Positions 15,929 through 33,101 of a stretch of 64,000 nucleotides of DNA are shown here, in pieces. The position numbers and the translations under genes are program-made. The DNA lies in assembly GCA_963822405.1 (NCBI GenBank), contig CAWGHH010000005.1, forward strand, positions 39,439 to 103,438, read 5' to 3'. The DNA comes from Candidatus Uhrbacteria bacterium. GTDB taxonomy: Bacteria; Patescibacteriota; Patescibacteriia; UBA9934. Numbering within the stretch: position 1 is the first letter of the stretch; each line of letters starts with the position of its first letter. Below the pieces are notes generated by a model that worked only from the letters and a program-made list of their open reading frames with translations, did no database searches and was not told the DNA's origin.

Positions 15929-16714
15929 TTATATATACTCCCCGTGAATCCTTTCTAGTACAAACCACCCATGACGAACCTTGTCTGGTTTTGTTTCCTT
16001 GGATTTTATCATCCTAAAGCCATGTTCCTTGAAGAACTGCTTCCAAGCATCCGTGTTCTTATAATTATGCGGGCCGTGGTTTAGTACCTCAAAATTTAGT
16101 TTACGATCGATCGTTTCGGTCACCGCCTGCTCTTCTTTCGAATCGACCAAATCCTCCGCGATGAATACTTTGCCATCTATTTTTAGTACCCGCTTCAACT
16201 CGCTCATCACTTGGTCATATTCACCAGTGTCAATATGGTGCAGGACGAAAAATAACGTAGCGACATCCATTGAGTTGTCAGCGATCTCCTTCAAATCACC
16301 CGCATGCACAGTCTCATGCAGATACTCAAAATCTTTTTTGCCAGCTTCAAGTCGTTTTTCTACAGTCGGCGAAATATTGTCATGCGGATCAACGCCAACC
16401 ACTTTCATATCAGAAAACTCGTTGAGGATCACCTCCATCTCATGACCCTTACCAGCGCCAATACATAGTACTTTTTGCGTATTCTTTTCTTCTTCGATTC
16501 CCCCCTTTTCGCCCATCACTAATTCATTCGGCGATGCCTGCATTACGTCCTTAAATGAAACCTCGCCAATCATCCAATTGGCTCTTGGCTTAAGCGCTCG
16601 ATCAGCAAAAAACTGCACAAACCCTCCAGATAAAAATCTATTCACCCAACTATTCCTGGTCGGTTCAATTTGTTTCTTAACTTCAGGTGACTTCTCAAAT
16701 CCTTGTTCGTTCAT
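15929..16714 (-). CDS. class I SAM-dependent methyltransferase
   Basis: Motif I VLCIGAGKGHEM and later motifs (VVGVDPHD, MDVATLFFVLHHI, LKIDGKVFIAED). Start taken at internal MNEQGFEK (16714), because the longer ORF reads through a terminator hairpin. Confidence 0.65.
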   Translation of the reverse strand: MNEQGFEKSPEVKKQIEPTRNSWVNRFLSGGFVQFFADRALKPRANWMIGEVSFKDVMQASPNELVMGEKGGIEEEKNTQKVLCIGAGKGHEMEVILNEFSDMKVVGVDPHDNISPTVEKRLEAGKKDFEYLHETVHAGDLKEIADNSMDVATLFFVLHHIDTGEYDQVMSELKRVLKIDGKVFIAEDLVDSKEEQAVTETIDRKLNFEVLNHGPHNYKNTDAWKQFFKEHGFRMIKSKETKPDKVRHGWFVLERIHGEYI

Positions 16715-16742: not shown

Positions 16743-16773
16743 ACAAAACAAAACCGAGGCATTTCTACCCCGG
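16743..16773 (-). terminator. rho-independent terminator (copy 1 of duplicated terminator sequence)
   Basis: Minus-sense ccggggtagaaatgcctcgg followed by TTTTGTTTTGT. Nearly identical to 17396-17430. Confidence 0.6.
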
Positions 16774-16828
16774 AATTATTTATGAAATGTTGTTATTTTG
16801 AATCGATACAGTCTGCGACCAAATCGAA

Positions 16829-17395: not shown

Positions 17396-17430
17396 TGCAA
17401 AAAACAAAACCGAGGCATTTCTGCCCCGGG
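17396..17430 (-). terminator. rho-independent terminator (copy 2) after rplU
   Basis: Minus-sense cccggggcagaaatgcctcgg followed by TTTTGTTTTTTG. Confidence 0.65.
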
Positions 17431-17435
17431 CTTGT

Positions 17436-17747
17436 TTAGGAAATCTTTTCGATTTGGATGATTGTGTAAGGCTGGCGGTGGCCAACGTTACGGCGGTAGC
17501 GAGTCTTTCGCTTGTACTTGATAACGGAGATTTTATCTGCGCGACCATGTTCAGCGATTTTCGCTACAACCTCAGCACCCTTTACTTCAGGGCTGCCGAC
17601 CTTCACTTCAGAGCCGTCATCATTGCTGATGAGCATGGCTGTAAAAGTCATGGTCTTACCTTCTTCAAGGTCAATCTTCTCTACCTGGACTTTAAGCCCC
17701 TCTTTTACAAGGTATTGCTTACCGCCAGTGGTAATTACTGCGTACAT
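17436..17747 (-). CDS. rplU: 50S ribosomal protein L21
   Basis: MYAVITTGGKQYLVKEGLKVQVEKIDLEEGKTMTF... (103 aa) is the canonical bL21 N-terminus. Confidence 0.9.
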   Translation of the reverse strand: MYAVITTGGKQYLVKEGLKVQVEKIDLEEGKTMTFTAMLISNDDGSEVKVGSPEVKGAEVVAKIAEHGRADKISVIKYKRKTRYRRNVGHRQPYTIIQIEKIS

Positions 17748-19505: not shown

Positions 19506-20540
19506 TTATGAAGGCCGTCTAGAAATTCGCGCGAGCGTTCGTGCTACGCCGAGGAATACTAGTGACAACAAGACAAGAATCAATAGTTTTTCAAGATGCG
19601 AAAAGAACAATGTCGTCAGGCCGAACAACAACGAGAACCCAGCGTACACCGCTACTACCTGTCGTTCCGACAATCCTGCATCGAACAGTAGATGGTGAAA
19701 ATGATAGCGGTCACCACTAGTGATCGATCGATGCTCTCGCAAGCGACGATACATCACCTGGACTACGTCGAGACATGGCACGCCGAGCACGAGGAGTAAC
19801 GTCACCATTTTACTACCGGCAATGATCGACAGCACACCAAGCGTAAATCCGAGGAACGTACTTCCGCCCTCGCCTAGAAATATTCGAGCGACAGGAAAGT
19901 TCCAAAGTAGAAAACCAATAAGTGCAGCGGCAAACATGAGAGCGAGGAGTGCAACGTCTGGCTGAAAGTATGCCGTCGATAACGCCAGAGCCGCAATCAC
20001 GAGTGAACCGATCGTTGCGACGCTTGTCGTTAGTCCGTCAACGCCGTCGAGCAGCTTAGTCGCGTAACTCATGACAACGAGCCAAACGAAAGTTATAGCA
20101 GCAGATACCGTCGACGACACAACAATCGCCTCGCCAACGGGATTAGTCAGCTTCGAGACTCCGATACCAGCAAGACTCGCAATCAACGCTGCAACAACCG
20201 GAAACCACACACTGTATTTCGGCGACAATCCGAGTTTATCGTCGAGCGCACCACCGATCATGAGCACGAGTCCAGCGACAAAGAATCCGAAGTACTGCCT
20301 AAGCTCTATCTGTCCGCTCGTCAGATGCGTCGACAACGCAAGCACAAGAAGCACCGGCACAAAGAAACCGACGAACACCGCGAGTCCGCCGAGCAATGGG
20401 GTCGACGCCGTGTGAATCTTTCGTCCCCCCGTTGGCTCGTCGACAATCCTAAATTTCTTTGCCAATAAAATAACGAGCGGAGTAAGACTCGCTGAAAGAA
20501 TAAATGCGAGAGCGATGGGGAGGGGGAACCAGGGAGGCAT
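19506..20540 (-). CDS. UDP-HexNAc:polyprenol-phosphate HexNAc-1-phosphate transferase (WecA/TagO/MraY family, GT4)
   Basis: KFRIVDEPTGGRKIHTASTPLLGGLAVFVGF plus about 10 TM segments; more WecA/TagO-like than MraY. Confidence 0.75.
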   Translation of the reverse strand: MPPWFPLPIALAFILSASLTPLVILLAKKFRIVDEPTGGRKIHTASTPLLGGLAVFVGFFVPVLLVLALSTHLTSGQIELRQYFGFFVAGLVLMIGGALDDKLGLSPKYSVWFPVVAALIASLAGIGVSKLTNPVGEAIVVSSTVSAAITFVWLVVMSYATKLLDGVDGLTTSVATIGSLVIAALALSTAYFQPDVALLALMFAAALIGFLLWNFPVARIFLGEGGSTFLGFTLGVLSIIAGSKMVTLLLVLGVPCLDVVQVMYRRLREHRSITSGDRYHFHHLLFDAGLSERQVVAVYAGFSLLFGLTTLFFSHLEKLLILVLLSLVFLGVARTLARISRRPS

Positions 20541-20555
20541 AGTCAGAATGTCAGT

Positions 20556-20642
20556 CCTTGCGAGACCAGACGTAATCGTCTGGGTCGAAGCAATCTCATT
20601 GAGGTTGCTTCGGGCTCCCGCAGACGGGACCCTCGCAATGAC
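20556..20642 (-). repeat. ~88-nt structured repeat, copy 2 (inverted; sense, 5' of the WecA-like gene)
   Basis: Reverse complement matches 14821-14908. The only differences are a 2-nt insertion in a hairpin loop and the 3' tail. Confidence 0.7.
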
Positions 20643-20655
20643 GAAGAGTAAGTCT

Positions 20656-23250
20656 CTACAACTTCTGTGCCTTCTTTACCTCAATTTTCCCGCCGGCGTC
20701 AAAAATAACGGTATCGCGCCTAGTAATATTACCTTTTAATAATTCGTCAGCTAGCTTATTCTCCAGTTTTTCCTCTATTGTCCGTCGTAATGGTCGCGCA
20801 CCGAATTTCGGGTCGAATCCCTGTTTACCAAGTTCGTGAATGGCCGCATCTGTTACCTCTAGCGTCATGCCCTTGGCCTCAATCTGCCTCTTTACTTTCT
20901 CGACTAGCAAATATGCAATAGCGGTCACGTCGGCTTCCGTCAACGGCGCAAACACAATCACATCATTAAACCGGTTCAGGAATTCTGGTCGGAAAAGTGA
21001 TCGCAATTCTGTCGCGAGCAATGACTCTTTTATGGTCGACAGCGCCGTACCCTTTGCTACCTCGTCTTGAATGTATTGTGTCCCCGCATTACTCGTCGCA
21101 ATCAGAATCACATTCGTGAAGTCAACAGTCTGGCCGAGCCCATCGGTTAGTCTGCCGTCGTCCATAACCTGAAGGAACAAATTCAAAATATCAGGACTTG
21201 CTTTTTCGAGCTCGTCGAGTAGTAACAACGAAAATGGATTTCTTCGAATCGCCTCAGTGAGCAATCCAGTCTGTCCGTTGCCGCCGATTAATCGAGTAAC
21301 TGACTCAGCTGCTTGGTACTCGCTCATATCAAAACGCACCATTGCGTTTTCGTTTCCAAAGAATAGTTCACTCGTCGCTTTAGCAAGTTCGGTTTTACCA
21401 ACACCAGTTGGCCCCAAGAACAAAAAGTTGGCGATTGGTTTCCCCGCGCTGCGCATCTCGGTGCGTGCTCGACGTAAAGCCGAAGCGACCGCTGATACTG
21501 CGTGTTCTTGACCGATCAATCGCTCGTGTAGCTTTTCCTCTAGGTTCAATAGCTTCTGCCCTTCCCCCTCGCCCACCTGACTAACTGGAATCTTTGTTTT
21601 CAACTCGACCATTGATGCTACGTCATCCTTAGTCACCCAAGTCAAAGTTTTATTCTGTTTGCCTACAGTCAAAGCAACTTCTTTTAAAAGCGAAATCGCG
21701 TTGTCCGGCAACACACTGTCATGCAAGTACCGCAACGAGAGATCAACCGCCGAGGCAATCGCTCCATAAGTGAAAATAACATGATTTTTCACCTCCATGA
21801 GCCCGACTTTTGACTCGACAATGCGAATAGCAAGGTCACGAGGAGGCTCCGCAATCTGAATACGTTCGAGCCTCTTCCCAATCACTGACCGCTCTATTTT
21901 CTCGGCGTAACCTTGAGGCGTCGTTGTTGCGATCACGAACGTATAACCCTTTTCGAGTTCGCCAGCGAGAATGCTCGAAAGATCAATCGACGAGCCAACG
22001 CCCACTAGTTCGTGAATATCTTCGATGACAAGCACGATGTTACCCGAGTGACCAACCTCATTAAGCGCATGCAAAAAACGTTCTTCTGCCCCACTTCCAC
22101 CATGTGCGCTTACAATGTGCGGAACGGACAATTTCAAAAGTCGCTTGTCTTCGAGGATCCCCGGAACACGCTCTTCGACCATCAGGTCAGCAATGCCCTC
22201 GATAATAGCTGACTTACCAACGCCAGAAGGACCGACAAGTACAACACTCGTTCCGCCGCCTTCTATAGCGCGAAAAATAGACTGAATCTCTTCGTCGCGT
22301 CCAACAAGCAACTCAGTGTATCCACGAGCAGACGCACGGGTAAGGTCTTCGCTCACCGAATCAAGAAACGGCGTAGCAATAGCCGTCATTGCGCGGTCCA
22401 TGTTGTTTTGTGGCTTGAAGGCAGCCGCTCGGCGAAATACCTTATAACGCTCCTGTTGCTCCTCAGAAATTCGCATCCAGTGCAGAGCATTTTCAAGTTC
22501 AGCTTGCGGAATTCCCTGCTCATCAAAAAGTTCTTTGAAAAATTCATCAGACTGATAAGCAGCGGCAAATATATCGAGACTTGTGAGGTGTCGTCGCCCG
22601 CCTTTTACGGCAATCACTCCAGCCAGAGCCAACACGTGTGCGCCCCGCTCGCCAATAACCGTGTCACCTTTTGGTTCAGTGGCTAGATGTCGACGCAACG
22701 GCTCGCGCACCGTATCAATCGTCAAACCAAGACGAGCAAATAGAATCTGGCCAGGCCGAGAACCAAGCGCACCGGCAAAAAGATGAGATGGCCCAACATC
22801 TGCATTTTCATCTTTCTTAGCTAGAAGATACGCATCTTCTACTGTCTTAATGGCTTCGTCGGTTGAATATACCGAAAGCTCATTGGCCTTCTCACTCACC
22901 GAATCCTCAAATTCAGCTGACGCATTCTTCGGAAACGCCAGTGGCTCCGGCGCAGAAATTCTTTTTTCGAAATACGCAAAGAGGAAGAGGATAAGACCCA
23001 AAGGCAGAAAAGCGAACATCGCCCGAGGCTCGCTCCATGTCTGTAGAGGCGTAGCTTGCCACGCCCCCACGAGCGCAGCGAATCCCAGAATTGAAAGCGT
23101 CCCCATTGCAAACGCCACCAGCGCAAACATTTTTCTAGCTTTCTTCAATCCCCTCTCATGGCCTATAGAAACTTCATCAATCTCCTTTCGCCAAACAAAA
23201 GTCTGATCACCCGCGCGAAGTCCCGGTAATGATTCTTGATTACGCGACAT
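20656..23250 (-). CDS. Clp/Hsp100 family double-AAA+ ATPase (ClpA/ClpC-like) with N-terminal membrane anchor
   Basis: Two Walker A sites (VLVGPSGVGKSAIIEG; LFLGPTGVGKTELAKA), a Clp N-domain, and the ClpAB signature RFDMSEYQ. Two predicted TM helices precede the Clp N-domain. Start probably internal MSRNQ (23250). Confidence 0.75.
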   Translation of the reverse strand: MSRNQESLPGLRAGDQTFVWRKEIDEVSIGHERGLKKARKMFALVAFAMGTLSILGFAALVGAWQATPLQTWSEPRAMFAFLPLGLILFLFAYFEKRISAPEPLAFPKNASAEFEDSVSEKANELSVYSTDEAIKTVEDAYLLAKKDENADVGPSHLFAGALGSRPGQILFARLGLTIDTVREPLRRHLATEPKGDTVIGERGAHVLALAGVIAVKGGRRHLTSLDIFAAAYQSDEFFKELFDEQGIPQAELENALHWMRISEEQQERYKVFRRAAAFKPQNNMDRAMTAIATPFLDSVSEDLTRASARGYTELLVGRDEEIQSIFRAIEGGGTSVVLVGPSGVGKSAIIEGIADLMVEERVPGILEDKRLLKLSVPHIVSAHGGSGAEERFLHALNEVGHSGNIVLVIEDIHELVGVGSSIDLSSILAGELEKGYTFVIATTTPQGYAEKIERSVIGKRLERIQIAEPPRDLAIRIVESKVGLMEVKNHVIFTYGAIASAVDLSLRYLHDSVLPDNAISLLKEVALTVGKQNKTLTWVTKDDVASMVELKTKIPVSQVGEGEGQKLLNLEEKLHERLIGQEHAVSAVASALRRARTEMRSAGKPIANFLFLGPTGVGKTELAKATSELFFGNENAMVRFDMSEYQAAESVTRLIGGNGQTGLLTEAIRRNPFSLLLLDELEKASPDILNLFLQVMDDGRLTDGLGQTVDFTNVILIATSNAGTQYIQDEVAKGTALSTIKESLLATELRSLFRPEFLNRFNDVIVFAPLTEADVTAIAYLLVEKVKRQIEAKGMTLEVTDAAIHELGKQGFDPKFGARPLRRTIEEKLENKLADELLKGNITRRDTVIFDAGGKIEVKKAQKL

Positions 23251-23662
23251 AAGTTGGAGATACGCCAGACATGAAAGCGTGATAAGCAAAAAGCAAAGCC
23301 AAAGCGATTGGTCCAAAGACGTACAAAGCGAATAATGCGAACGCGACAATCACCCAAAATAAAAGTGCAATCACCCGGCCAACAATCTGCACGCTCCGCA
23401 TGAACACACTAATCAACCGACTCTGCCAATCATACGCGCCGTACATCGGCACGAATATATTTTTCACCCAAACTCCAATCTGCAAAGACCTAGAAGCTCC
23501 AATAATCAAATCACTCGTGCCCGTCACTCTTTCGAGTAATCCCGTGGAATACCACCAAATTGGGAAATACAAAAAATCGAGGGTCAGGTCTCGCACAATA
23601 CGGAAACTGGCCTCAAGCGAAGGCATATGGGGAAAGTATAGCAGGAAAATGAAGAACCACAC
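23240..23662 (-). CDS. hypothetical membrane protein
   Basis: Hydrophobic 140-aa ORF. Start uncertain; it overlaps the 3' end of the island-2 ORF in another frame. Confidence 0.35.
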   Translation of the reverse strand: MWFFIFLLYFPHMPSLEASFRIVRDLTLDFLYFPIWWYSTGLLERVTGTSDLIIGASRSLQIGVWVKNIFVPMYGAYDWQSRLISVFMRSVQIVGRVIALLFWVIVAFALFALYVFGPIALALLFAYHAFMSGVSPTYVA

Positions 23663-24234
23663 CGCGAAGGCCAGTGTGGCTCTTCATGATGTGGTCGTTG
23701 TTCGGATCTTAACGTTTCAGGAGCTCGAGGGGCCGGCTCGGCCCCCGGCGTTGATTCGTTGGTCTCGACGAAGTGACAAGACACTGGGTCGTCGTACGAA
23801 AACGGTCGGAGATCGATTCCCGGACCATCGCCACCCGGAATAAAGACGAGGATCTGCGGTTGGCCGTTGATCACCATCGGATTCGCGGGCAACACCATGA
23901 TTACTTCATCACCACCGCGGCGATTCCGCTGTCCTTTCATGTTGATCAGGAACCAACGCAGTCCGATTTCGTAGGTCAGCGGAGAACCCTGCTGATACTC
24001 GAGCAGGTCTCGCATGGTTGCGTTCGTCCCGGGTTCGAGGCTGGAACGCCAGGTCTGGTAGAACCCGATGGAGCTCTTACCACAGACGACCTTCGCGGCA
24101 TCCTCATAGATCCTCGCACCGCCAGACCACATAACGTGGATCGCGGTCAGGATCTGTTCGGTGGTCACGCCGTCTCCGGTGGTCACCACGTACCGACTAT
24201 TCAGATCTGAATTCACGGAAAGGTTGGGTCGCAT
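23584..24234 (-). CDS. hypothetical protein in GC-rich island 2 (3' end uncertain)
   Basis: GC is about 58% from about 23690 to 24240. RBS GAGGAGcgacaATG. Preceded by a consensus promoter block shared with the DGR target gene. The C-terminal part of the listed ORF probably reads past the true stop. Confidence 0.5.
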   Translation of the reverse strand: MRPNLSVNSDLNSRYVVTTGDGVTTEQILTAIHVMWSGGARIYEDAAKVVCGKSSIGFYQTWRSSLEPGTNATMRDLLEYQQGSPLTYEIGLRWFLINMKGQRNRRGGDEVIMVLPANPMVINGQPQILVFIPGGDGPGIDLRPFSYDDPVSCHFVETNESTPGAEPAPRAPETLRSEQRPHHEEPHWPSRCGSSFSCYTFPICLRLRPVSVLCET

Positions 24235-24272
24235 TGTCGCTCCTCACAAAAGGTGATCGCAAATACCATGTA

Positions 24273-24328
24273 AATATAGCAAAAAAATGGCTTTTTGTCA
24301 AGCCATTTTCTGCTTATATTTGCGAATA
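24273..24328 (-). promoter_or_regulatory. conserved promoter block, copy 1 (TTGACA-17-TATATT with hairpin-forming spacer)
   Basis: Minus sense reads gcagaaaatggcTTGACAaaaagccatttttttgcTATATTtacatgg. About 55 nt are nearly identical to 38239-38294. Confidence 0.65.
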
Positions 24329-25489
24329 TTAGCCTCTTTCTATCAGCGCACGAATCTCCTCCATCATCCTAATATAAAACCTCAGGTTCTGGTACGTGGC
24401 TAGGCGAAGGCCAAGGATTTCTTGGTTCTTAAATAAATGTCGCAAGTAAAGTTTCGAGTAGGTTTGAGAAGTCGGCCAGTCATTGAATGGATCAATCGGT
24501 GATTCGTCAGTGATGAATTCTTCGTTCTCAATCGAAATTTTCTTATATAGAGCTTCGGCGATTCTAAAATCAGCCGCATCATCTTGGGCGCGGGCAAAGG
24601 CCTCCGCCACACACGTAGCTGGGTCGCCGGCCCAAACAAATAATCCGCCGTGACGCGCGTGCCTGGTCGGGATTACGCAGTCAAACATGTCCACGCCGTG
24701 GGCGACGTAGTACATGATTTCCTCTGGCATTCCCCCGCCCATGAAATAGCGTGGCTTGTCAGCTGGCATGTTTGACGCTAAACGCTTCACAATGCGGAAC
24801 GTGTCTTCGCGGTGCTCGCCAACAGACAAACCACCAATAGCATAGCCGTCAAAATTACTCTTCAAAAGTCCTGCCAGTGATCGCGCGCGCAAGTCTTCAT
24901 ATGTCCCGCCTTGAATGATTCCAAATAAAAGTCCGTGGCCGGAATGCGCCGCCTTTGACCTCTCGGCCCAACGCAACGATCGTTCCATTGCCTCTTCATA
25001 TCTTTCGCGCGTGGACAAACCAGCCGCCACATCATCAAACTGCATTCGAATGTCGGATCCGATCGCGGCCTGGATACGCATCGATTCTTCAGGAGTGAGT
25101 CTAACAGTGTGCCCGTCTAAGTGCGATTGGAATGTCACGCCGTCTTCGTCCGTCTTATTCAACTTCGCCAAAGAAAAAACCTGATAGCCACCGGAGTCCG
25201 TCAGAATCGGCCCCTCCCAACGCATAAACTTTCTCATCCCGCCAACTTTCTGCAGAATCTCAGTGCCTGGTCGAAGCAACAAATGATAAGTATTGCCGAG
25301 AATAATTTGCGCGCCCAAAGACTTCACCTCCTCCGAAGTCATCGCCTTTACGGCTCCTGTCGTCGCAATCGGCATAAACACCGGCGTCTTAACCACTCCG
25401 CTTGGCGTAGTCAATTCACCGGCACGAGCTAGACCTTTGGTCGACGAAACGTTAAACGCTGAGCTCATAGAGCGCAATGCTAGTGGCAA
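24329..25489 (-). CDS. tgt: queuine tRNA-ribosyltransferase (tRNA-guanine transglycosylase)
   Basis: TPVFMPIATTGAVK, LGNTYHLLLRPG, DSGGYQVFSL and a C-terminal zinc-binding region. Start may be internal MSSAFNV (25468). Confidence 0.85.
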   Translation of the reverse strand: MPLALRSMSSAFNVSSTKGLARAGELTTPSGVVKTPVFMPIATTGAVKAMTSEEVKSLGAQIILGNTYHLLLRPGTEILQKVGGMRKFMRWEGPILTDSGGYQVFSLAKLNKTDEDGVTFQSHLDGHTVRLTPEESMRIQAAIGSDIRMQFDDVAAGLSTRERYEEAMERSLRWAERSKAAHSGHGLLFGIIQGGTYEDLRARSLAGLLKSNFDGYAIGGLSVGEHREDTFRIVKRLASNMPADKPRYFMGGGMPEEIMYYVAHGVDMFDCVIPTRHARHGGLFVWAGDPATCVAEAFARAQDDAADFRIAEALYKKISIENEEFITDESPIDPFNDWPTSQTYSKLYLRHLFKNQEILGLRLATYQNLRFYIRMMEEIRALIERG

Positions 25490-26123
25490 TCGCCACGTTC
25501 AGGGACTCAAGTTCAACATTTTGTGGAATGTAGACGCTGGTCGCATTTTCAAGTTCGAGCGTAACTCCCCTGCCCTCGTTGCCAGCGACAATGATGAGTG
25601 GTTCTTTGGGAATCTCGCTGATCATTTTTGCATCGCCTCTCAGTTCGAGCTTGTAGATTGGTCGGCCAATGCTTGCGAGAATGTCTGGTGCGTCAGATTT
25701 TGCAATTTCAATCCACGGAGTCTTCAACATGGAGGCCGCACTCGCGCGAACAGATTTCGGATTTGTTGGATCAGCAGACTCGACAAGAATCAATCCTGCG
25801 TCGAACGCCAAACACACGCGCATAATTGTTCCAACGTTGCCTGGGTCTTGGACGTTATCGAGAACAACAATTAGCTTGCACTTCTTTACATTGTCGAGCG
25901 TGAACTGCGGAATCTTCGCTACGCCCGCAACGTTCTGCGGAGTTTCAGTTGAGATCAGCTCGCGGAAATTTGCCACGTCTTTGTCCGTAAAAGAGAACTC
26001 TAAGTATTTCTTTGCATCTTTCACAAACTTCGCCCCTTCAATCAAAAACATTCCGTGCTCACGGCGGGCTTTTTTGTTATCAACGAGCTCCTTAACCAAC
26101 TTCTGCTTAGCTTTGTCTAACAC
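25452..26123 (-). CDS. TrmH/SpoU family RNA 2'-O-methyltransferase (RlmB-like)
   Basis: N-terminal substrate-binding domain plus SpoU motifs LIVVLDNVQDPGNVGTIMRVCLAFDAG and LIIVAGNEGRGV. Confidence 0.75.
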   Translation of the reverse strand: MLDKAKQKLVKELVDNKKARREHGMFLIEGAKFVKDAKKYLEFSFTDKDVANFRELISTETPQNVAGVAKIPQFTLDNVKKCKLIVVLDNVQDPGNVGTIMRVCLAFDAGLILVESADPTNPKSVRASAASMLKTPWIEIAKSDAPDILASIGRPIYKLELRGDAKMISEIPKEPLIIVAGNEGRGVTLELENATSVYIPQNVELESLNVAIATSIALYELSV

Positions 26124-26126
26124 AAA

Positions 26127-26372
26127 TTAGGCTTTAACCTTATCTTCTAAATTCATAATTCGGTTTTCGTGATCATCTACTTTGCCAAGAACATGATCAT
26201 CAAGAATCTCTGCGGTCGATGTCAGAATCTCAGTCTTCATCTGATCAAGTTTTTTATCTGTCCTTGCCTCTGAAGCTCTAATTTCTTGCTGAACCAAATC
26301 AACAGTATCACGATGTTTATCGTCAATATGTTGGGTCAACTTTTCGTATAGTTCTTCAAAATCTTTGATCAT
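26127..26372 (-). CDS. small coiled-coil protein (~81 aa), hypothetical
   Basis: Internal Met MIKDFEELYEKLTQHIDDKHRDTVDLVQQEIRASEARTDKK... The upstream part of the listed ORF overlaps the preceding gene. Confidence 0.35.
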   Translation of the reverse strand: MIKDFEELYEKLTQHIDDKHRDTVDLVQQEIRASEARTDKKLDQMKTEILTSTAEILDDHVLGKVDDHENRIMNLEDKVKA

Positions 26373-26391
26373 AGATATTCTATCTTCTTCA

Positions 26392-27750
26392 TTAAACCAC
26401 AAGTGGCAACGCATGCATAGTAAATGGTCGACCGCGCACGACATCCTCAATTCGGTATGCCCCGTGGGTCGGCGCGTTGATGTAGCCATTCCAAGCCATG
26501 CGTGCAAAAGCTCCGCCTTCAATCCAATCCCAGAGCCATTCATCGGCGTAACGTGGATCGAGTGCGTCGACCCCGGCACCTACCTGAAATAGCCAGTTTC
26601 GATTGAAATCTTCTTGGCTGCCGACTGTCGGCGACATAAGAATCGGGATACCAAGGCCAGCATAAAAAGACAGCTCGGACGGTTTTGTCCAAAGAATATC
26701 CGTTTCCATCATGAGTTTGTTGAACGTGGAAAAGTATTGATGGCGATCCTTGTTCTCGATGATGGCCACTCGACCATCATGTAACGCTTCTTCAAGCCCC
26801 GCTTTCGCCAACTCCCGACGGAAATACTCGCCAACTTCTGGTCGAATTCCAGCCACCAGATTTACTTGTAGTTTGCCGGCCAAAATACTTTGCGCGAGTG
26901 ACTTAGCGGCAATTGCTCCAATTTCTTTTTGTGCCCCTGCCCCACCAATAGCAAACGTCACAGATACCGCTCGGCTCTTCTTATTAATCACATTCTGGCA
27001 AAACATTGGCCCCATCTGCGCCTCGAGCATGACTGACGCCTGTGACAAGAAAACCGCCTTAGGATCAAGATGACACATTCGCCTAGTCAAATCACTAATC
27101 AGCTGCGGGGCCTCGGCACCACCCACCGCTTCCATCGGCAACGGGAAACCAGTGAGAATGATATTTTCGCTCCGCACTCCGTACAACTGCAATCGTTCAG
27201 CCACTCGACCAGTCGGCGCCAGATATTTGATTCTACTCTTGTATGGATTGAGCGGAGCCCATGGTCTGGCTACGTCAGCATCGCAGCACACAACATAAAT
27301 ATCTTCCGGATAATTGAATTCCTCCGCTGCAAAAGCCGGAGCCATAAATGTTGAAACCAATGGCTTTGGATGCTTGGCGAGTGTATCAACCAAGTGATGA
27401 CACCAGTTTCTTTGGCGAATGAGAGCGTACGTACTTCGCAGCTGCATGGTTGGTTCAGACAAATCTCGACGAGGATAAAATGATTCAATTCGCTGCGTCC
27501 AATCAAGAACGCCAAAAACAGCCTCGCCCAAAACTGGCACTTTCTTAAACCGCGAAATTCGTTCGTACCAACGTCTACTAGTAGCCCACAAGTTTCTGTC
27601 ATTGTCTGGAATCCCCGGGTAATCATTTGCAATGATAACTTTCTTATCAACAGCAAAAGGTTTAAGGCTGGACGCCGCCCGCTCATGTCCATAACCCATG
27701 CTCACGGCCACCACATGCGCCGCGCCTTCTCCCCCATGAAGCTCCTTCAT
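26392..27750 (-). CDS. GT-B glycosyltransferase, MGDG-synthase/MurG-like (GT28 family), putative
   Basis: N-terminal VVAVSMGYGHERAASSL (G-x-G-H motif of the MGDG_synth/MurG N-domain). C-terminal FAIGGAGAQ...ILWTKPSELSFYAGLGIPILMSP resembles the GT28 C-domain. Start taken at MKELHGG. Confidence 0.5.
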   Translation of the reverse strand: MKELHGGEGAAHVVAVSMGYGHERAASSLKPFAVDKKVIIANDYPGIPDNDRNLWATSRRWYERISRFKKVPVLGEAVFGVLDWTQRIESFYPRRDLSEPTMQLRSTYALIRQRNWCHHLVDTLAKHPKPLVSTFMAPAFAAEEFNYPEDIYVVCCDADVARPWAPLNPYKSRIKYLAPTGRVAERLQLYGVRSENIILTGFPLPMEAVGGAEAPQLISDLTRRMCHLDPKAVFLSQASVMLEAQMGPMFCQNVINKKSRAVSVTFAIGGAGAQKEIGAIAAKSLAQSILAGKLQVNLVAGIRPEVGEYFRRELAKAGLEEALHDGRVAIIENKDRHQYFSTFNKLMMETDILWTKPSELSFYAGLGIPILMSPTVGSQEDFNRNWLFQVGAGVDALDPRYADEWLWDWIEGGAFARMAWNGYINAPTHGAYRIEDVVRGRPFTMHALPLVV

Positions 27751-27836
27751 ATTAGGGAAGTATAACAAAGGTGCGTTACGGTTTGACGGGAATCCCCCAG
27801 TCAAGTACACTCTCACAGTCTTAATTTTCGTTTTGT

Positions 27837-28067
27837 ATGGCCAAAGTCTGCGCAATAACAGGCAAGCTGCGACTGACGGGCAATAACGTCAGCCACTCCA
27901 ACGTGAAGACGAAGCGTCGCCAGATGCCAAACTTACAGCCAAGAACGGTTGTAAACCCAGCTACTGGCAAAGCCCACCGGATTACAGTATCCGGCCGTGG
28001 CCTCCGCACGCTCCGCAAGTGGATGAAGGAAGGAAAAGTTTTCGACCTTCGTAAGCTAGCCTCATAA
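27837..28067 (+). CDS. rpmB: 50S ribosomal protein L28
   Basis: MAKVCAITGKLRLTGNNVSHSNVKTKRRQMPNLQ matches bL28 ([25 protein letters not shown].PNL). Confidence 0.85.
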   Translation: MAKVCAITGKLRLTGNNVSHSNVKTKRRQMPNLQPRTVVNPATGKAHRITVSGRGLRTLRKWMKEGKVFDLRKLAS

Positions 28068-28071
28068 AGAA

Positions 28072-28106
28072 AATGCCCCTAACTCGTAAGAGCGGGGCAT
28101 TTTTCT
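28072..28106 (+). terminator. rho-independent terminator (bidirectional position)
   Basis: atgcccc-(13 nt)-ggggcat followed by TTTTTCT. Confidence 0.6.
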
Positions 28107-28116
28107 ATCTGATATT

Positions 28117-29331
28117 TTATTGTGGCGCAAGTTCTGGATGGTTCTTCAAAAACGAATCGAGCAACCGCGCGCCTTTATCCTTCCAAACTGTTAGACCGTA
28201 ATAATCTTTTTCTAAAATGTAATCAGCAATTGCCTGCTCGGCGGCTTGGGGGTTTGACCCAACAATTTGCAAGACGTACTTATCAAGATAGCGGAACTCT
28301 AGCTCTTCACGATCATCTTCATTTTCAACCTGCTGCCAGACCTGCGCATCATAAACACGCTTCACTACGTCAGCCTTAGACAATCCAGCTCTAAGATAAG
28401 TTACTAGTTCTAGCTGTATGTCATCAATGGATCTAAGCGAAAGATCATCAGAAGAAACCTTGCCCTTAAGAAAATCAATCAACGCCCCTACCTGCTGATC
28501 TGCCGTACCTGGGTCAAAATGCATTTCTTTCACAGCGTATTCCGGCTTCATGACTAGCCCAATATCATTCGCTCTGTGGCCAATATCTGACGCATAGTAC
28601 GCATCATAAAGCGCCTTAGCCGTGCTGAAGTCCATATCCGTGTGAATGAACTTAAACATCATGTACAAAAAAGGCGTAGGAATTCTGTCCCCGCTAGTCA
28701 GTTTAAGCAGAACATCTTTCATGAACGTTCCTTGGTTGGCACTTCTCTGTGGATCACCAATTTGGTAGCTTCGGCGGTGACGTAGGAATTCGAGAGTATC
28801 TGTAGTTGGCAAATTCAAAGCTCTGAAAATTCCAATTGCTTCAGAAAATCCAACTGTGGCCACATAGTCAGCTTTTACACCGGCTACTTTTTCAATCTGC
28901 TTCACGCCGTAATCCAGCCCGCCGAAATAACAAGCGTTTGCCAAATAGTAATCAGTAGTCAAATAAGTGTGACCAGCAATCGACGGCAATGACGAGGTAG
29001 TACCACGTGGCACAGAAATGATACTCATGGTCCAAGTCTTCACGTTCAGACTCACCATGTGAATAGCGTCGCAGTGGGCATAGGCGCCTTCTTTGCGAGA
29101 ATCAATGCCTAAAGTCAAAATGTTGATTGTGTCCTTATCGCCAAAAGAAGCGTCCCCAGTCTGAAGAATTTCCGCCTCTCGGCTCTTTAAAACCGCCGAA
29201 ACCGCATCCTTAACCGCCGGCTCAGCCGCGGCCAAATCATGTGGTGCAGAGGGCTGATTTACGAACGCGCCAAACAAAACCATGGTAGCCACCACAAAGC
29301 TCGTCGGGACAATATAGGCCAGCTTGCGCAT
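28117..29331 (-). CDS. LytR-CpsA-Psr (LCP) family cell-wall polymer transferase
   Basis: N-terminal TM anchor, then INILTLGIDSRKEG...HCDAIHMVSLN (LCP catalytic region). Start at MRKLAYIV. Confidence 0.7.
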   Translation of the reverse strand: MRKLAYIVPTSFVVATMVLFGAFVNQPSAPHDLAAAEPAVKDAVSAVLKSREAEILQTGDASFGDKDTINILTLGIDSRKEGAYAHCDAIHMVSLNVKTWTMSIISVPRGTTSSLPSIAGHTYLTTDYYLANACYFGGLDYGVKQIEKVAGVKADYVATVGFSEAIGIFRALNLPTTDTLEFLRHRRSYQIGDPQRSANQGTFMKDVLLKLTSGDRIPTPFLYMMFKFIHTDMDFSTAKALYDAYYASDIGHRANDIGLVMKPEYAVKEMHFDPGTADQQVGALIDFLKGKVSSDDLSLRSIDDIQLELVTYLRAGLSKADVVKRVYDAQVWQQVENEDDREELEFRYLDKYVLQIVGSNPQAAEQAIADYILEKDYYGLTVWKDKGARLLDSFLKNHPELAPQ

Positions 29332-29409
29332 ATCTGTATCCCTCTTATCAAAAAACCCCGACTGTTGTCGAGGATTTTTGATCCACACTTGTGGAGAACG
29401 GCGTGAAAA

Positions 29410-29691
29410 TTAGAGAAGAGCTTCCTTAGCAGCCTTGCTAACTCCGAACTTTAGAACAGTCTTAGCTGGGATCTTAATGGTCTCGCCAGTGGCTGGGTTA
29501 CGGCCCATGCGTGCTGGACGGTTCTTCTTAACGAGCTTTCCAAGACCTGGCATTACGAATTCGCCAGAACGCTTGATCTCGCCGAATACAACGGCCATGA
29601 ACTTGTCATACATGTCTGAAGCATCCTTCTTGGAAACGCCCCATGTCTCTGAAAGTGCAGTCATGATCTGTGCCTTTGTGAGTCGTGCCAT
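29410..29691 (-). CDS. hup: HU family DNA-binding protein
   Basis: MARLTKAQIMTALSE...GEFVMPGLGKLVKKNRPARMGRNPATGETIKIPAKTVLKF (93 aa). Confidence 0.9.
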   Translation of the reverse strand: MARLTKAQIMTALSETWGVSKKDASDMYDKFMAVVFGEIKRSGEFVMPGLGKLVKKNRPARMGRNPATGETIKIPAKTVLKFGVSKAAKEALL

Positions 29692-29774
29692 ATGAGAATT
29701 CTTTAATTCATTAACCTTTTACGGTGGCAAGCGTAGCACAGGCCTTAAAATGCTGGGAAAATCTATCCACAGCA

Positions 29775-31016
29775 CTAATTCGCGCTCTTTCTCTCCTCTA
29801 AAGTTACGGTTATTGTTTTTTCTTTTCCGTCATGCATAATTTTCAACGTCAACTTGTCCCCCACGCTATGTGACGCGATGATATTTTCAAGTGGCACCTT
29901 GTCCGTCACCTTCTCGCCGTTCACTTCTAGAATAATATCGTTCTCTTCTATTCCCGCCTTATCTGCTGGCGAGCCGGGCACAACCGCCAGGTCACCAATC
30001 TTCGCTCCGCGAATAACTAGCACCCCGTAATCAACCGTTAGATCATTCGCATTTTTTACTTCGTCGTTAATCGGAATATATCGCACACCAATATACGGTC
30101 GAATAACCCGCCCATTTGTTTTTATCGAGTCAACCGTCTTCTTGACCGCGTTCGCCGGTAAAGCAAAACCGATACTCTGTGCACTCCCGGCACTCGCCGC
30201 CACGTTCACGCCGATCACATTTCCCATGAGGTCGAGCAACGGTTCGCCCGAGTTCCCTGGATTAATCGCCGCGTCCGTTTGGATTACATTCGGCAAAGTT
30301 TCTGAATTACCATAATTAGTCGAGGCTGAAACTGACCGCGCCAAACCGGACACCACGCCGGTCGAAACCGTATTGCGATACTCGCCAAGAGCATTACCAA
30401 TAGCGATTACCGACTGACCAACCTTAAGCGAATCAGAGTCGCCAAATGAAAGATACGGCAAGCCCTTTGCCTCAACCTTTAGTAGCGCAATATCCATAAC
30501 CGTATCTGCTGCAATCACCTTGGCGTCATATTTTGTACCGTCCGTTAAAAACACTGTGTACTGCGCAGTGTCGTCCGCCACTACGTGAGCATTCGTCACC
30601 AAGTAGCCATCATCACTTACAAAGAACCCACTACCGCCACCAACCTCCCGAGTCTTCGTCTGCCCACTTTGTCGATATTGCGGAATTTGAAAACCTCCCA
30701 TGCCATTCCCAAACGGATCGTAATTCTGCATGTACTGCTCCATGACCGGCACATCTTTACTGATAACGATCGCGACCACAGCTGGATTTACTTTCTCAAC
30801 TACACTCACCACGTTATCTGACTTCCCTGTTGAATCCATCAGAACTACAGGTGTCGACGAAGCAGAAACGGACTGGATATGCAGGTTCTGAGAAACCCAA
30901 CCAGACAAATCTGTATGCTGAATCACGGTCACTAAACCAAAAATCAACAAACCGTTTGCAACACATGCGCCCAAGAACCCAAACAGGAACGATTTTTTTA
31001 ATGTTTCGTTGTCCAT
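29775..31016 (-). CDS. HtrA/DegP-family trypsin-like serine protease with PDZ domain
   Basis: Catalytic His (GSGFFVSDDGYLVTNAHVV), Asp (DIALLKV) and Ser (GNSGEPLLD) motifs. C-terminal PDZ. N-terminal TM anchor. Confidence 0.85.
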   Translation of the reverse strand: MDNETLKKSFLFGFLGACVANGLLIFGLVTVIQHTDLSGWVSQNLHIQSVSASSTPVVLMDSTGKSDNVVSVVEKVNPAVVAIVISKDVPVMEQYMQNYDPFGNGMGGFQIPQYRQSGQTKTREVGGGSGFFVSDDGYLVTNAHVVADDTAQYTVFLTDGTKYDAKVIAADTVMDIALLKVEAKGLPYLSFGDSDSLKVGQSVIAIGNALGEYRNTVSTGVVSGLARSVSASTNYGNSETLPNVIQTDAAINPGNSGEPLLDLMGNVIGVNVAASAGSAQSIGFALPANAVKKTVDSIKTNGRVIRPYIGVRYIPINDEVKNANDLTVDYGVLVIRGAKIGDLAVVPGSPADKAGIEENDIILEVNGEKVTDKVPLENIIASHSVGDKLTLKIMHDGKEKTITVTLEERKSAN

Positions 31017-31075
31017 AGTGTCTAAATTATTTCCCTATCCTATATTACTCGTCAACTGCTATAATTCTTTCATCT

Positions 31076-31957
31076 ATGAATATCAGCATAATTGGCTACG
31101 GAGAAATTGGTAAAGCTCTTCAAGCAGTACTCAAAGATAAGAAGGGCGTAAACGTAAAAGTCTGGGATAAAAATGCTAATAAAGTTCCAGATCAAGGAAC
31201 AATGCATGATCTACTGGCAACATGTGAGCTAGTCTTTCTCTGTGTGCCATCATGGACGCTTCATGGCGCACTCCTGGAAATTCATCCACATTTAGTCGAG
31301 GGCACCGGCATCATCACCCTCGCCAAAGGCATCGAGCAGGAGACTTGCAAAACCTCTGACAATTTACTTAGCGATCTTTTAGTTGGTCACCCAGTTGGCA
31401 TTCTTGGCGAACCAATGATTGCCGATGAACTATTTGCTGGAAAACCAACGGCTGGAATTCTTGGCAGTACAGATGCTGACTTACGGAAAAAAGTCCGCGC
31501 CTTATTTAGAAAAACTAACCTAGAAATACGAACCAGTGCAGACGCCAGAGGAGTGGCGCTTTGCGGTGTGCTCAAAAACACTTATACCCTTGCTCTCGGC
31601 ATTGCTGACGGTCTAGCTCTCGGCGATAACGCCAAAGGCTGTCTTCTGACTCGTTCGATTAGAGAAATGCGCATTATAATCAAAGAACTTGGTGGCAAAC
31701 AAAGCACCATTCTCTCGGAAGCAGGTATTGGCGATCTATTCGCCACTGGCCAAAGCCCACATTCCCGCAACCACGGCGTGGGCGTTGCCCTTGGTTCCGG
31801 CGCCAAACTAGACGGCATGCAAAGCGAAGGCGTTATGAGCATGTTCTGCCTAAAGAAGCTACTCGAGCCTAAACTTGCAGAACTCCCCCTCCTGTCATAC
31901 CTTTACGAGGTAGTCCAAAATAACCGAAAACCCGAGGACATCTCGAGTCTTCTCTAA
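31076..31957 (+). CDS. gpsA: NAD(P)H-dependent glycerol-3-phosphate dehydrogenase
   Basis: ISIIGYGEIGKAL Rossmann motif; AKGIE, GVLKNTYTLALGIADGLALGDNAKG, SPHSRNHGVGVALG. Confidence 0.8.
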   Translation: MNISIIGYGEIGKALQAVLKDKKGVNVKVWDKNANKVPDQGTMHDLLATCELVFLCVPSWTLHGALLEIHPHLVEGTGIITLAKGIEQETCKTSDNLLSDLLVGHPVGILGEPMIADELFAGKPTAGILGSTDADLRKKVRALFRKTNLEIRTSADARGVALCGVLKNTYTLALGIADGLALGDNAKGCLLTRSIREMRIIIKELGGKQSTILSEAGIGDLFATGQSPHSRNHGVGVALGSGAKLDGMQSEGVMSMFCLKKLLEPKLAELPLLSYLYEVVQNNRKPEDISSLL

Positions 31958-31960
31958 CGT

Positions 31961-32707
31961 ATGCTCGAACTTTATTTCCCGATAATAGTCTTTCTCGGCA
32001 TCGTGTTTCTCTCGACTCTTAAGCAGGTCAACCAGTACGAACGTGGTATCCGCTTCACCATGGGCAAATATTCAAGCATGGCGGAACCTGGTTGGCGCGT
32101 GGTCATCCCAGTGTTTCAGTTCATGCGTAAGGTCGATCTTCGTCTAAAAGCGGTCGACGTTCCTTCACAGGAAGCTATTACTAAAGATAACGTCTCCGCA
32201 AAAATCAATGCGGTTATTTATTACAAAATTGTTGATCCAGCTAAAGCCATTATCGAGGTTGAAAATATCAACTACGCCGTTCTTCAGTTAGCGCAGACAA
32301 CCATGCGTAATGTAGTTGGCGAAGCCACCCTCGACGAACTCCTCTCTCAGCGCGCGATCATCTCCGAGAAGATCGAAAAGCAAGTTGACGTTACTACTCT
32401 TCCTTGGGGTGTCGAGGTTACATCCGTCGAACTCAAGGACATTAACTTGCCTCCCGACATGGTCCGCACTATCGGCAAGCAAGCCGAAGCCGAACGCGAA
32501 CGCCGCGCCGTCATCATTAACGCTGAAGGCGAACTAGCCGCCGCCACTAATCTCTCCGCCGCCGCTAAGCTACTCGCCGAAACCCCAGGCGCTCTACATC
32601 TCCGAACGCTCAACGCCATCAACGACATCAGCTCCGACGCATCAAACACGGTTGTGTTCACGGTACCGCTTGAAATTCTCTCGGCGATCGCCGGGTTTAA
32701 GAAATAA
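31961..32707 (+). CDS. SPFH/band-7 (stomatin-like) membrane protein
   Basis: N-terminal TM helix, then QYERGIRFTMGKY...AVDVPSQEAITKDNVSAKINAVIYYKIVDPAKAI...MRNVVGEATLDELLSQR. Confidence 0.8.
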   Translation: MLELYFPIIVFLGIVFLSTLKQVNQYERGIRFTMGKYSSMAEPGWRVVIPVFQFMRKVDLRLKAVDVPSQEAITKDNVSAKINAVIYYKIVDPAKAIIEVENINYAVLQLAQTTMRNVVGEATLDELLSQRAIISEKIEKQVDVTTLPWGVEVTSVELKDINLPPDMVRTIGKQAEAERERRAVIINAEGELAAATNLSAAAKLLAETPGALHLRTLNAINDISSDASNTVVFTVPLEILSAIAGFKK

Positions 32708-32708
32708 T

Positions 32709-33029
32709 ATGGAGAACACCCACGATCACCGCGCTGAAAACCAAGAAAAATTTAGAGTATTTCTTGAACGATATCCTGTAGTTATTCCTCCCGAGATTGT
32801 CGGACATATTCTCGATCTCCAAAAACGAGCAGACGCCACTCCCACATCCAAAGAACTAGAACCGATCACCGAGGAGATGCAACACAACAATACCGGCAAG
32901 TATGAGCGCCTCTATCAACTCAGAAACACTCCCGACAGCTCAACAGATGAAATCAAAAAACTCGAAGAACAACTCTCCGACTGCTTCTGCGGTAGCGGCA
33001 AAAAGTTTAGTGAGTGTCATGGGGTGTAA
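32709..33029 (+). CDS. stand-alone SEC-C motif protein (YecA-like)
   Basis: C-terminal CFCGSGKKFSECHG is the SEC-C metal-binding motif (C-x-C-x8-C-H). Confidence 0.6.
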   Translation: MENTHDHRAENQEKFRVFLERYPVVIPPEIVGHILDLQKRADATPTSKELEPITEEMQHNNTGKYERLYQLRNTPDSSTDEIKKLEEQLSDCFCGSGKKFSECHGV

Positions 33030-33047
33030 CGATGGTCAACCCGCTCC

Positions 33048-33101
33048 CAGTCCCTGAGCGTAGGCGGCTTGCCCGGCTATGCCGGGAAGGGCCTAGAGGT
33101 G
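33048..33101 (-). repeat. hairpin repeat family, copy A (inverted, with a 22-nt hairpin insertion)
   Basis: agtccctgagcgtaggcg-[gcttgcccggctatgccgggaag]-ggcctagaggtgg; reverse complement aligns with copies B and C. Confidence 0.55.

Follow-up and report, generated by a model that had tools for sequence, protein, structure and literature searches.

The 64,000-nt window analyzed here (the whole stretch of DNA under study, 48.8% GC overall) belongs to a chromosome of the Patescibacteria (Candidate Phyla Radiation, CPR). It contains two near-identical copies of an intergenic block, hereafter T1, each of which begins at the end of one gene and leads into a GC-rich orphan gene, referred to below as its cargo, on the minus strand. 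One cargo gene is the target of a diversity-generating retroelement (DGR), and a further block of like architecture, T2, precedes a third GC-rich orphan gene. Comparison with other genomes established the following pattern: the copies are homologous, they are placed only ahead of GC-rich orphan genes, they occur in several genomes, one site is found both empty and refilled, and a terminator type is shared among cargo genes. We consider it fairly probable that the block combines promoter and terminator in one cassette for foreign genes that vary between strains, located at a gene-swapping hotspot; by analogy with cassettes known from phages, the conserved 60–90 nt probably also act as a recombination handle at such hotspots.

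Copies and anatomy of the T1 block

The 38-nt core of T1 (GCAGAAAATGGCTTGACAAAANGCCATTTTTTTGCTAT) has exactly two occurrences in the window, one in copy A (24276-24313(-)) and one in copy B (38242-38279(-)). Both fit the pattern with zero mismatches, and the pattern gave 0 matches in 100 shuffles of the sequence. The two cores are identical at 37 of 38 positions, the sole difference (A versus C) falling at the N position of the pattern, and gapless extension yields 86% identity over 77 nt (24265-24341 versus 38231-38307), in agreement with the near-identity noted in a first-pass annotation of this DNA. Each copy opens within the final codons of the gene before it and closes a few bases past the predicted transcription start (..CATGGT), beyond which copies A and B share no similarity. 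The blocks begin at the TAA codons of tgt, the DUF1003 gene and murB, and the ending GGCTAA is found in 3 of the 56 window genes, exactly these three, which abut the three blocks.

The promoter elements described earlier (a -35 TTGACA, a 17-nt spacer and a near-consensus -10) are present in both copies. Each scores 11/12 and carries a TG extension, and the two are the top-ranking sigma70-like sites within 20001-40000. The spacer is T-rich, and an A/T-rich tract (AATATAAGCAGAAAAT) lies upstream of the -35. A strict pattern, TTGAC-N15-TGnTATnnT, has three sites in 64 kb versus 0 expected; these are the two T1 blocks and the island-1 promoter (T2), each ahead of a GC-rich orphan gene, which argues against a ubiquitous intergenic repeat, the counter-case raised in the annotation. 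The promoters of rplU and tRNA-Trp have other sequences, not T1. From the end of the -10 to the start codon, the distance is 39 nt (ATG 24234) and 91 nt (ATG 38148), with a ribosome-binding site (RBS) at each ATG, consistent with the 40–100 nt given before.

A hairpin had been placed within the spacer. Folding instead pairs the spacer (24279-24291 in copy A) with an arm upstream of the -35 (24302-24313), and the block as a whole forms an imperfect palindrome of ~50 nt. The folding energy is -21 kcal/mol, with z-scores of -3.9 (copy A) and -2.2 (copy B). A consensus scan also flagged the copy A hairpin as terminator-like; its stem has just three G-C pairs. When the window was searched against Rfam, two tRNAs alone reached the gathering threshold, and the block at E<=1 gave generic hairpin echoes far below threshold; a known RNA family for the block was therefore rejected, no Rfam family being near threshold.

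The tgt junction in relatives and copies at other loci

Comparison loci outside the window are labeled L001–L016, of which L001 and L005 represent one Patescibacteria metagenome-assembled genome (MAG). Block copies were sought by one scan each of genome collections and metagenome collections, which returned few, and relatives for the junction comparison were gathered via Tgt homologues. The closest public Tgt proteins bear the names Patescibacteria or Uhrbacteria.

In the window, T1 copy A and its cargo gene (cargo A) stand between tgt and a conserved gene of 128 aa. In L013 (Tgt 82% identical) these two genes are 2 nt apart with nothing between them, that is, the site is empty. The junction of L015 (81%) holds a hairpin, a T1 promoter, a GC-rich open reading frame (ORF) of 65 aa with a GC content at third codon positions (GC3) of 0.70, and a terminator. 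L014 (80%) has a T1-like promoter right after the tgt stop codon, followed by another GC-rich ORF within which the contig ends, the 128-aa gene lying beyond view. L010 (95%) contains a GIY-YIG gene, a T1-like promoter and a 253-aa ORF of 61% GC, and L011 (84%) contains two other genes, a hairpin, a T1 promoter and, at 64% GC, a second DGR target gene unrelated to that of the window. The annotation had named a recombination hotspot as one possible mechanism and proposed a check for strain variability of the downstream genes, and the comparison supports a hotspot with variable genes: relatives with Tgt proteins 80–95% identical carry a block of this family at the junction, each with a different GC-rich gene, and the junction that is empty in L013 is filled in the window, L010, L011 and L015. 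Because the tgt junction keeps one promoter family in front of changing genes, and stands empty in one relative, we regard it as a hotspot.

The Tgt proteins of the window and L015 end in ..IERG*, and those of five other relatives in ..VIAS*, ..VIEL*, ..VIES*, ..LIAS* and ..VILK*. The hairpin lies over the -35 in the window and upstream of the -35 in L011, L015 and L010; L015 and L011 have a canonical terminator hairpin (AAAGAGGC-loop-GCCTCTTTTTT) ahead of the promoter, with the motif AAAGAGGCTAA as its 5' arm. At the right-hand edge of the variable segment, the 128-aa gene has an extended -10 box, TGCTATACT, that is similar to T1 in its 3' half (CATTTT..TGCTATAYTT), and the surroundings of the tgt insert look partly duplicated (CTGNTATA..GAAAG on the left, CTGYTATACTTTC on the right). 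The TGCTATACT box is conserved in L013, L015 and L010. Both this box and another extended -10 box, TGCTATAAT (~43950, ATG 43942), lie 8 nt before the ATG with no Shine-Dalgarno sequence, which suggests leaderless mRNAs.

We also observed a second conserved intergenic element of ~45 nt, ATCCAATAGCCCACCTCTAGACCCCTCGCCTACGCTCGGGGAC, in the window (795-830 and 33538-33573), in L011 (7696-7753) and in L010 (~6860-6900, 7186-7245 and 8296-8350). In both L011 and L010 this element comes after the tgt stop codon, and the latter has two inverted copies around the GIY-YIG gene (91 aa) and a third behind the GC-rich insert. The D3 repeats were rejected as cassette boundaries, as they lie around the insert in L010 and are missing from the window cassettes.

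T1 is also found away from tgt. In the L001/L005 MAG, a copy of 58–69 nt that is 90–93% identical opens at the lepA stop codon and stands ahead of a SixA-like phosphatase gene (61% GC, GC3 0.83). Besides the block, the L001 and window sequences compared have nothing in common, which bears out the portable cassette proposed earlier. The copy in L003, ahead of an SLT-domain gene of 61% GC, has diverged but still shows the -35, a 17-nt spacer and the TGn. Over the core, the two window copies and the L001 copy are mutually 93–97% identical, whereas copy A and its L015 counterpart are ~86% identical. The 265-kb contig of the L001/L005 MAG has one strict block match, and a profile built from eight copies recovered T1 copies only across the 142 kb searched. 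Metagenome matches at L002 and L004 were dismissed as chance or analogous fits to a loose search pattern, not block copies.

Several cargo genes sit in a conserved promoter–terminator frame. A motif for the 3' arm of the terminator, G[CT]GG[CT]TCTTC.?[AT]TTT, has five matches in the DNA searched, each just 3' of a GC-rich gene driven by T1 or T2 (window cargo A, L015, L001, L007 and L010), and two of the five lie outside the set from which the motif was defined. The 5' arms vary so that pairing is kept. The cargo A terminator is directly followed by CATTTTCCTGCTATACTTTC, which is similar to T1 over the 3' half of the block, so that the cassette is bracketed by a short direct similarity.

The promoter ahead of island 1 had been described as related to that of T1. 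Its architecture is alike (TTGACT-17-TATTAT at 6920-6948(-)), but the homology did not hold up: a T1 nhmmer profile recovered no T2 copy even at E<=10, and T1–T2 homology was rejected, the architecture alone being in common. Judged from its sequence, T2 is a second promoter family, separate from T1. Over 56 nt, it shows 84% identity with the block that stands before the L007 DGR target, and a looser relative precedes another GC-rich orphan gene in L010. The proposed link of the block to DGRs is strengthened by these loci, as the T1 core stands ahead of the unrelated second DGR target in L011 and a block of the island-1 type before a homologue of the window target in L007. Orthologous DGR targets (window and L007) thus sit behind promoters of different families and one family serves unrelated genes; the promoters act as modules.

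The neighbors of the blocks are cellular genes, namely tgt, the clp ATPase gene, murB, the DUF1003 gene, rplU and recR. The housekeeping genes of the window are tgt (24329-25489), murB (6973-7977), the Clp ATPase gene (20656-23349), rplU and two tRNAs, and nothing in the window or the compared loci pointed to a prophage. A 20-kb window region had no megablast match in phage records, neither T1 nor T2 matched IMG/VR, and blastn of the block against phage and plasmid records gave no match. A phage or plasmid origin was rejected on these results.

Cargo genes and the DGR

The three window cargo genes show codon periodicity together with a deviant base composition. Their GC3 is 0.83 (cargo B, the DGR target), 0.72 (island 1) and 0.64 (cargo A), versus 0.39–0.58 in most other window genes, and the anomaly claimed before survives 400-nt windowed GC statistics: GC downstream of the three sites is 0.07–0.08 above the window mean, and ~3–7% of 400-nt windows deviate that far. 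The 58–60% GC given for these islands holds for the DGR target (60%) and fails for island 2, cargo A, which has only 56–57% (GC3 0.63–0.80 over the first ~150 codons). As the GC3 of rplU and the HU genes is only 0.52, the GC excess is not expression-linked, and codon bias of highly expressed genes was rejected as its source. In the window and six loci together, cargo genes have 55–64% GC on backgrounds of ~44–54%. We infer a horizontal origin of the cargo genes. Whole-cassette transfer from GC-richer relatives is the simplest reading of their composition, and homologues of the DGR target reside in the GC-richer contigs L008 and L009.

The cargo proteins are mutually unrelated by BLASTP, barring the homologous DGR targets of the window and L007, and the three from the window have no Pfam, NCBIfam or PADLOC match. 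Cargo A has just 16 distant representatives among 1.8 billion clusters, all of 165–180 aa. Its residues ~166–216 are read-through of its own terminator hairpin and then of 43 nt into the next gene, and the coding periodicity fades after residue ~150–165; a lost stop codon or a frameshift is the likely cause of the extension. The AlphaFold2 model of cargo A is confident (predicted local distance difference test score, pLDDT, 81) and has no significant structural neighbor in PDB or BFVD; the model of the DGR target is unusable (pLDDT 42.5).

Cargo B was verified as a genuine DGR target. All 15 of the 15 differences between the template repeat (TR, 36954-37075) and the variable repeat (VR, 37349-37470) fall at TR adenines, the VR lies at the 3' end of the target, and both a reverse transcriptase (RT) and Avd are present, matching RVT_1 at 2.8e-23 and NF033474 at 2.5e-16, respectively. 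The TR has a single partner in the window, and island 2 was accordingly rejected as a second, remote DGR target. Between L007 and the window, the DGR targets are 53% and the RTs 60% identical; the L011 target (VR 9406-9538, TR 9923-10055) is unrelated to that of the window.

The window RT, Avd and TR are AT-rich (42–43% GC), unlike the 60% GC target. The same chimeric composition, with targets of 59–64% GC (GC3 up to 0.83) and RT and Avd of ~35–45% GC, was observed in the three DGRs with RT or Avd sequence available (window 35524-38148, L007 1472-4295 and L011 8892-10328). In three diverged DGRs, targets have stayed GC-rich beside an AT-rich RT or Avd gene, which speaks against simple recent transfer and subsequent drift to the composition of the host. 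The Avd gene of the window (36561-36986) lies on the opposite strand and overlaps the TR by ~30 nt. The hairpin behind the stop codon of the window target is likely a terminator and possibly also a DGR target-recognition hairpin. All three DGR targets share a CTTGGA/CTCGGA-rich sequence (GCACTTGGAAACTCGGCACTCGGA..) right past the stop codon (window 37272-37318, L007 ~2310-2370, L011 ~9555-9610), which folds into a long hairpin in the window and L007. Homologues of the DGR target in L007 (1330-1470) and L008 (100-230) share a conserved 5' untranslated region of ~130 nt (for example ..CCGCCCACGGC..AAAAAAGGAGGC..); it matched nothing in Rfam and is a possible regulatory RNA leader.

Table 1. Positions of the blocks, their promoters and hairpins, and the adjoining genes in the window.
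Feature	Position	Strand	Description
T1 block, copy A	24265-24341	-	Last codons and stop of tgt to predicted transcription start; A/T-rich tract, hairpin, -35, -10
Copy A hairpin arms	24302-24313 and 24279-24291	-	Predicted by folding
Copy A promoter	-35 TTGACA 24296-24301; TGC-TATATT 24273-24281	-	17-nt spacer
tgt end inside block	24329-24340	-	GAAAGAGGCTAA, last three codons and stop of tgt
tgt	24329-25489	-	Queuine tRNA-ribosyltransferase; housekeeping anchor of copy A
Cargo gene A (island 2)	23584-24234	-	GC-rich ORF, 216 aa; RBS GAGGAG 24240-24245
Terminator of cargo A	23647-23685	-	GAAGAGCCACAC...GTGTGGTTCTTC, then ATTTT
Extended -10 of 128-aa gene	23635-23643	-	TGCTATACT; ATG 23626; right-hand edge of variable segment
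T1 block, copy B	38231-38307	-	GAAATGGGCTAA (end of DUF1003 gene) 38295-38306, hairpin, promoter
Copy B hairpin arms	38268-38279 and 38245-38257	-	Predicted by folding
Copy B promoter	-35 TTGACA 38262-38267; TGC-TATTAT 38239-38247	-	17-nt spacer
DUF1003 gene	38295-38837	-	Anchor of copy B
Cargo gene B (DGR target)	37333-38148	-	271 aa, 60% GC, GC3 0.83
Hairpin after DGR target stop	37272-37318	-	Strong hairpin, then ATTTTGATTTT
DGR remainder	35524-37075	mixed	TR 36954-37075(-), Avd 36561-36986(+), RT 35524-36456(-)
T2 block	6920-6982	-	TTTGGGCTAA (end of murB) 6973-6982; architecture like T1
T2 hairpin arms	6951-6958 and 6935-6942	-	Inside T2 block
T2 promoter	6920-6948; -35 6943-6948, TGC-TATTAT 6920-6928	-	TTGACT-ttttggctaatttttgc-TATTAT; strict pattern
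murB	6973-7977	-	Anchor of T2 block
Island-1 cargo gene	6223-6825	-	200 aa, 59% GC, GC3 0.72; no family match
Island-1 terminator hairpin	6153-6185	-	GC-rich, then TTCATATTT

Other features of the window were recorded in passing. The gene at 44019-45260(+) encodes a Cys/Met-metabolism pyridoxal phosphate (PLP) enzyme with a GC3 of 0.65 and has no T1 or T2 block, and a GC-rich cluster of small orphan ORFs at 8036-9600(+) (8849-9211, GC3 0.73) likewise has none; a degenerate T2-like sequence, TTGACTTTTCCCTAATCTTGG, lies at ~8765, ahead of ORFs of this cluster. Inverted repeats of ~90 nt, 96–98% complementary (14821-14910 and 20551-20642), flank 5.6 kb of DNA that extends from recR to a glycosyltransferase gene; L010 has this pair around the same segment (11361-11451 and 16566-16656), and the arrangement may represent a conserved structured element or a segment able to invert. 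Next to the rplU region lies a direct repeat of 59 nt (16745-16803 and 17401-17459, 81% identical) that holds a CCGAGGC..CCCCGG hairpin and is probably a repeated terminator. Finally, a DUF559 endonuclease-like gene (ORF 5334-5798(-)) overlaps 42-nt inverted repeats (5296-5337 and 5729-5770, 90% complementary), the left arm lying over its stop codon and the right arm within its 5' end. L016 also has a DUF559 gene with a similar G/C-run hairpin upstream, and the gene with its repeats looks like a small selfish element.

Proposed mechanism, alternatives and known systems

The proposed mechanism draws on the promoter-early stem-loop (PeSL) cassettes of T4-type phages (Arbiol et al. 2010, PMC2839356; Comeau et al. 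2014, PMC4122927). A PeSL is a conserved intergenic motif of ~70–100 nt that starts from the upstream stop codon and comprises an A/T tract, a sigma70-consensus promoter and a stem-loop that can end transcription from upstream; PeSLs sit before orphan genes in the most variable, hyperplastic regions, at ~50 per phage genome, and recombination between copies, with deletions, insertions and mini-circles as its products, has been proposed as a route of gene shuffling (PMC2839356, PMC4122927). In the window, the cassette would read, on the minus strand, as the last Gly codon of the upstream gene and TAA, a UP-like A/T tract, the stem-loop and a sigma70-type promoter. The promoter part (TTGACA, T-rich 17-nt spacer, TGn-TATAAT-like) would fire strongly and the hairpin would halt read-through from the upstream gene, the block thereby driving a one-gene unit equipped with its own ribosome-binding site and intrinsic terminator. 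The cargo, of which DGR targets would be one kind, deviates from the genome in composition and varies between related genomes. The 60–90 nt of conserved sequence would provide a homology handle at which cargo could be inserted, lost or exchanged, as in the PeSL mechanism.

Several observations weigh against this interpretation. Promoter and terminator activity of the block is deduced from consensus and folding only, and the hairpin stems are invariant among the T1a copies, so that covariation gives no support. Copy number is low, with two T1 and one T2 block in 64 kb, that is, 2–3 copies compared with the ~50 PeSLs of a phage genome. The tgt-junction copies of L010, L011, L014 and L015, at the same position as copy A and ~86% identical over the core, could be orthologous by descent and not mobile. 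The 93% identity between window and L001 copies may be less surprising than it appears, since the sequences compared have no orthologue in common from which the divergence of the two genomes could be measured. A cargo A homologue in L016 has normal GC and a different strong promoter, and GC-rich window genes exist that have no block (44019-45260 and the 8036-9600 cluster).

The main rival takes the block for a lineage-typical strong promoter, inherited vertically at tgt and duplicated or converted once in this genome, with no role in acquisition and the link to GC as a by-product. Conservation that covers exactly the promoter, from the UP region to ~+6, would fit this explanation, as would the low copy number and the more diverged copies at the position of copy A in four relatives. 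We nevertheless consider it unlikely, since copy A is less similar to its L015 counterpart than copies A, B and L001 are among themselves, an upstream stop codon is contained in the block at three unrelated loci, the cargo differs per relative at one locus with one site empty, rplU and tRNA-Trp use promoters of other sequence, and the shared 3' terminator would be left unexplained. The extra conservation could also stem from an operator, in which a palindrome (GCAGAAAATGGC-N10-GCCATTTTTTTGC) is bound by a dimeric factor that co-regulates accessory genes including the DGR target. That the palindrome is centered on the -35 and spacer, that TGGC/GCCA half-sites flank the -35 in T2 too, and that the spacer positions GCC..TTTTTTTGC are retained in eight copies all agree with a bound factor. 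However, the left arm is missing in L011, L015, L014 and L010, where the core promoter alone is kept, the arms differ in length (12 versus 13 nt) and include a G-T pair, no gene for a candidate regulator came to light, and the shared stop codon, 3' terminator and hotspot would need another cause; an operator thus appears improbable.

A miniature transposable element, a transposon end or an attC-/attI-like site handled by a dedicated recombinase would account for an imperfect palindrome of ~50 nt at unrelated positions in different genomes, and for the partly duplicated look of the tgt insert. Such elements are difficult to reconcile with two or three copies per 64 kb, with the lack of a transposase or integrase among the Pfam-scanned or annotated genes near the three blocks and loci, with the failure to see a clear target-site duplication or terminal inverted repeats around a discrete unit, and with viral, phage and plasmid collections that contain no match, and we judge this explanation highly improbable. 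That the block is only a terminator of tgt and the DUF1003 gene, or a small structured RNA, with an incidental promoter match, is suggested by the hairpin and T-rich sequence right behind the stop codons, which the terminator scan caught. Against this, only three pairs of the stem are G-C, Rfam offers no family close to threshold, and the -35, 17-nt spacer, TGn and -10 are kept where this hairpin is lost or a separate terminator lies upstream (L011, L015 and L010), which makes a terminator alone very hard to believe. Repeats and compositional jumps are, finally, typical of chimeric joins, in which assembly or binning would have attached GC-rich foreign DNA at a repeat. Every GC-rich gene, however, is interior to the contig and flanked left and right by genes of normal GC; a separate assembly, Logan ERR12037365, recovers the DUF1003–block–target segment with a DGR target that translates exactly to the window protein and neighbors equal in length and order; and the same architecture occurs in independent assemblies from other samples. 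Of all the explanations considered, an artefact of this kind is the least credible.

If the cassette interpretation is correct, a reusable module marks the entry points of foreign genes and guarantees their expression, and a search for blocks with a listing of the genes downstream would offer a handle on the accessory gene pool of uncultured lineages. A mechanism of gene shuffling so far described for T4-type phages only would extend to cellular chromosomes, and candidate strong promoters and terminators would become available for a phylum without genetic tools. More tentatively, and with some doubt on our part, the Patescibacteria might carry a cellular counterpart of the phage PeSL, an 'expression vector' circulating across genomes of differing GC. 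Such a vector would have a stop codon, hairpin and strong promoter at its 5' end and a conserved GAAGAGCC..GGTTCTTC-TTTT terminator at its 3' end, would hold interchangeable GC-rich cargo, including genes for DGR variable proteins, and would land behind housekeeping genes by block recombination. CPR bacteria, whose genomes are very small, are believed to grow attached to other cells, and their few accessory genes, notably those for DGR-diversified proteins, are thought to shape cell–cell interaction. In these reduced, host-dependent bacteria, the block would then both signal expression and serve as the vehicle for the flux of accessory genes.

Among known systems, the Correia elements of Neisseria are present in hundreds of copies, with a TA target duplication and terminal inverted repeats that are well defined. 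T1 resembles them as a short palindromic intergenic element able to give its neighbors a promoter and a hairpin or terminator; it differs from them and from miniature inverted-repeat transposable elements in its low copy number and internal palindrome, with no terminal inverted repeats or discrete target duplication seen. Integrons combine a fixed attI/Pc promoter with interchangeable gene cassettes, an intI integrase and attC at the 3' end of each cassette, and thereby share with T1 the succession of a promoter and interchangeable, often orphan, single genes at a hotspot. Near the blocks, by contrast, no integrase is found among Pfam-scanned or annotated genes and no attC-like 3' site was seen; the cargo ends in ordinary G+C-rich terminator hairpins with T-runs, and each cargo gene has its own promoter at scattered sites. 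Phage morons (Hendrix-type 'more DNA') are promoter–gene–terminator modules of deviant composition in phage and prophage genomes. The window cassettes are likewise autonomous single-gene units with their own promoter and terminator and deviant composition, inserted between genes that are adjacent in L013. They differ from morons in their cellular location, with no sign of a prophage in the window or loci and no match to phage records, and to our knowledge moron promoters have not been described as one conserved, reusable family common to unrelated morons.

The closest likeness in build is to the PeSLs, which the literature we searched treats for phages only; the same searches returned nothing on promoter motifs of Patescibacteria. 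T1 shares with a PeSL the start at a stop codon, the A/T tract, the sigma70 consensus and a predicted stem-loop of variable position relative to the -35 and -10, as well as the placement directly upstream of orphan genes, at boundaries of insertion, deletion or replacement among close relatives. In addition to being fewer, T1 and T2 differ in that they lie in a cellular chromosome behind housekeeping genes and not in a phage hyperplastic region, and in that their cargo, which includes DGR targets, is GC-rich relative to the genome, with several of the cargo genes sharing a 3' terminator.

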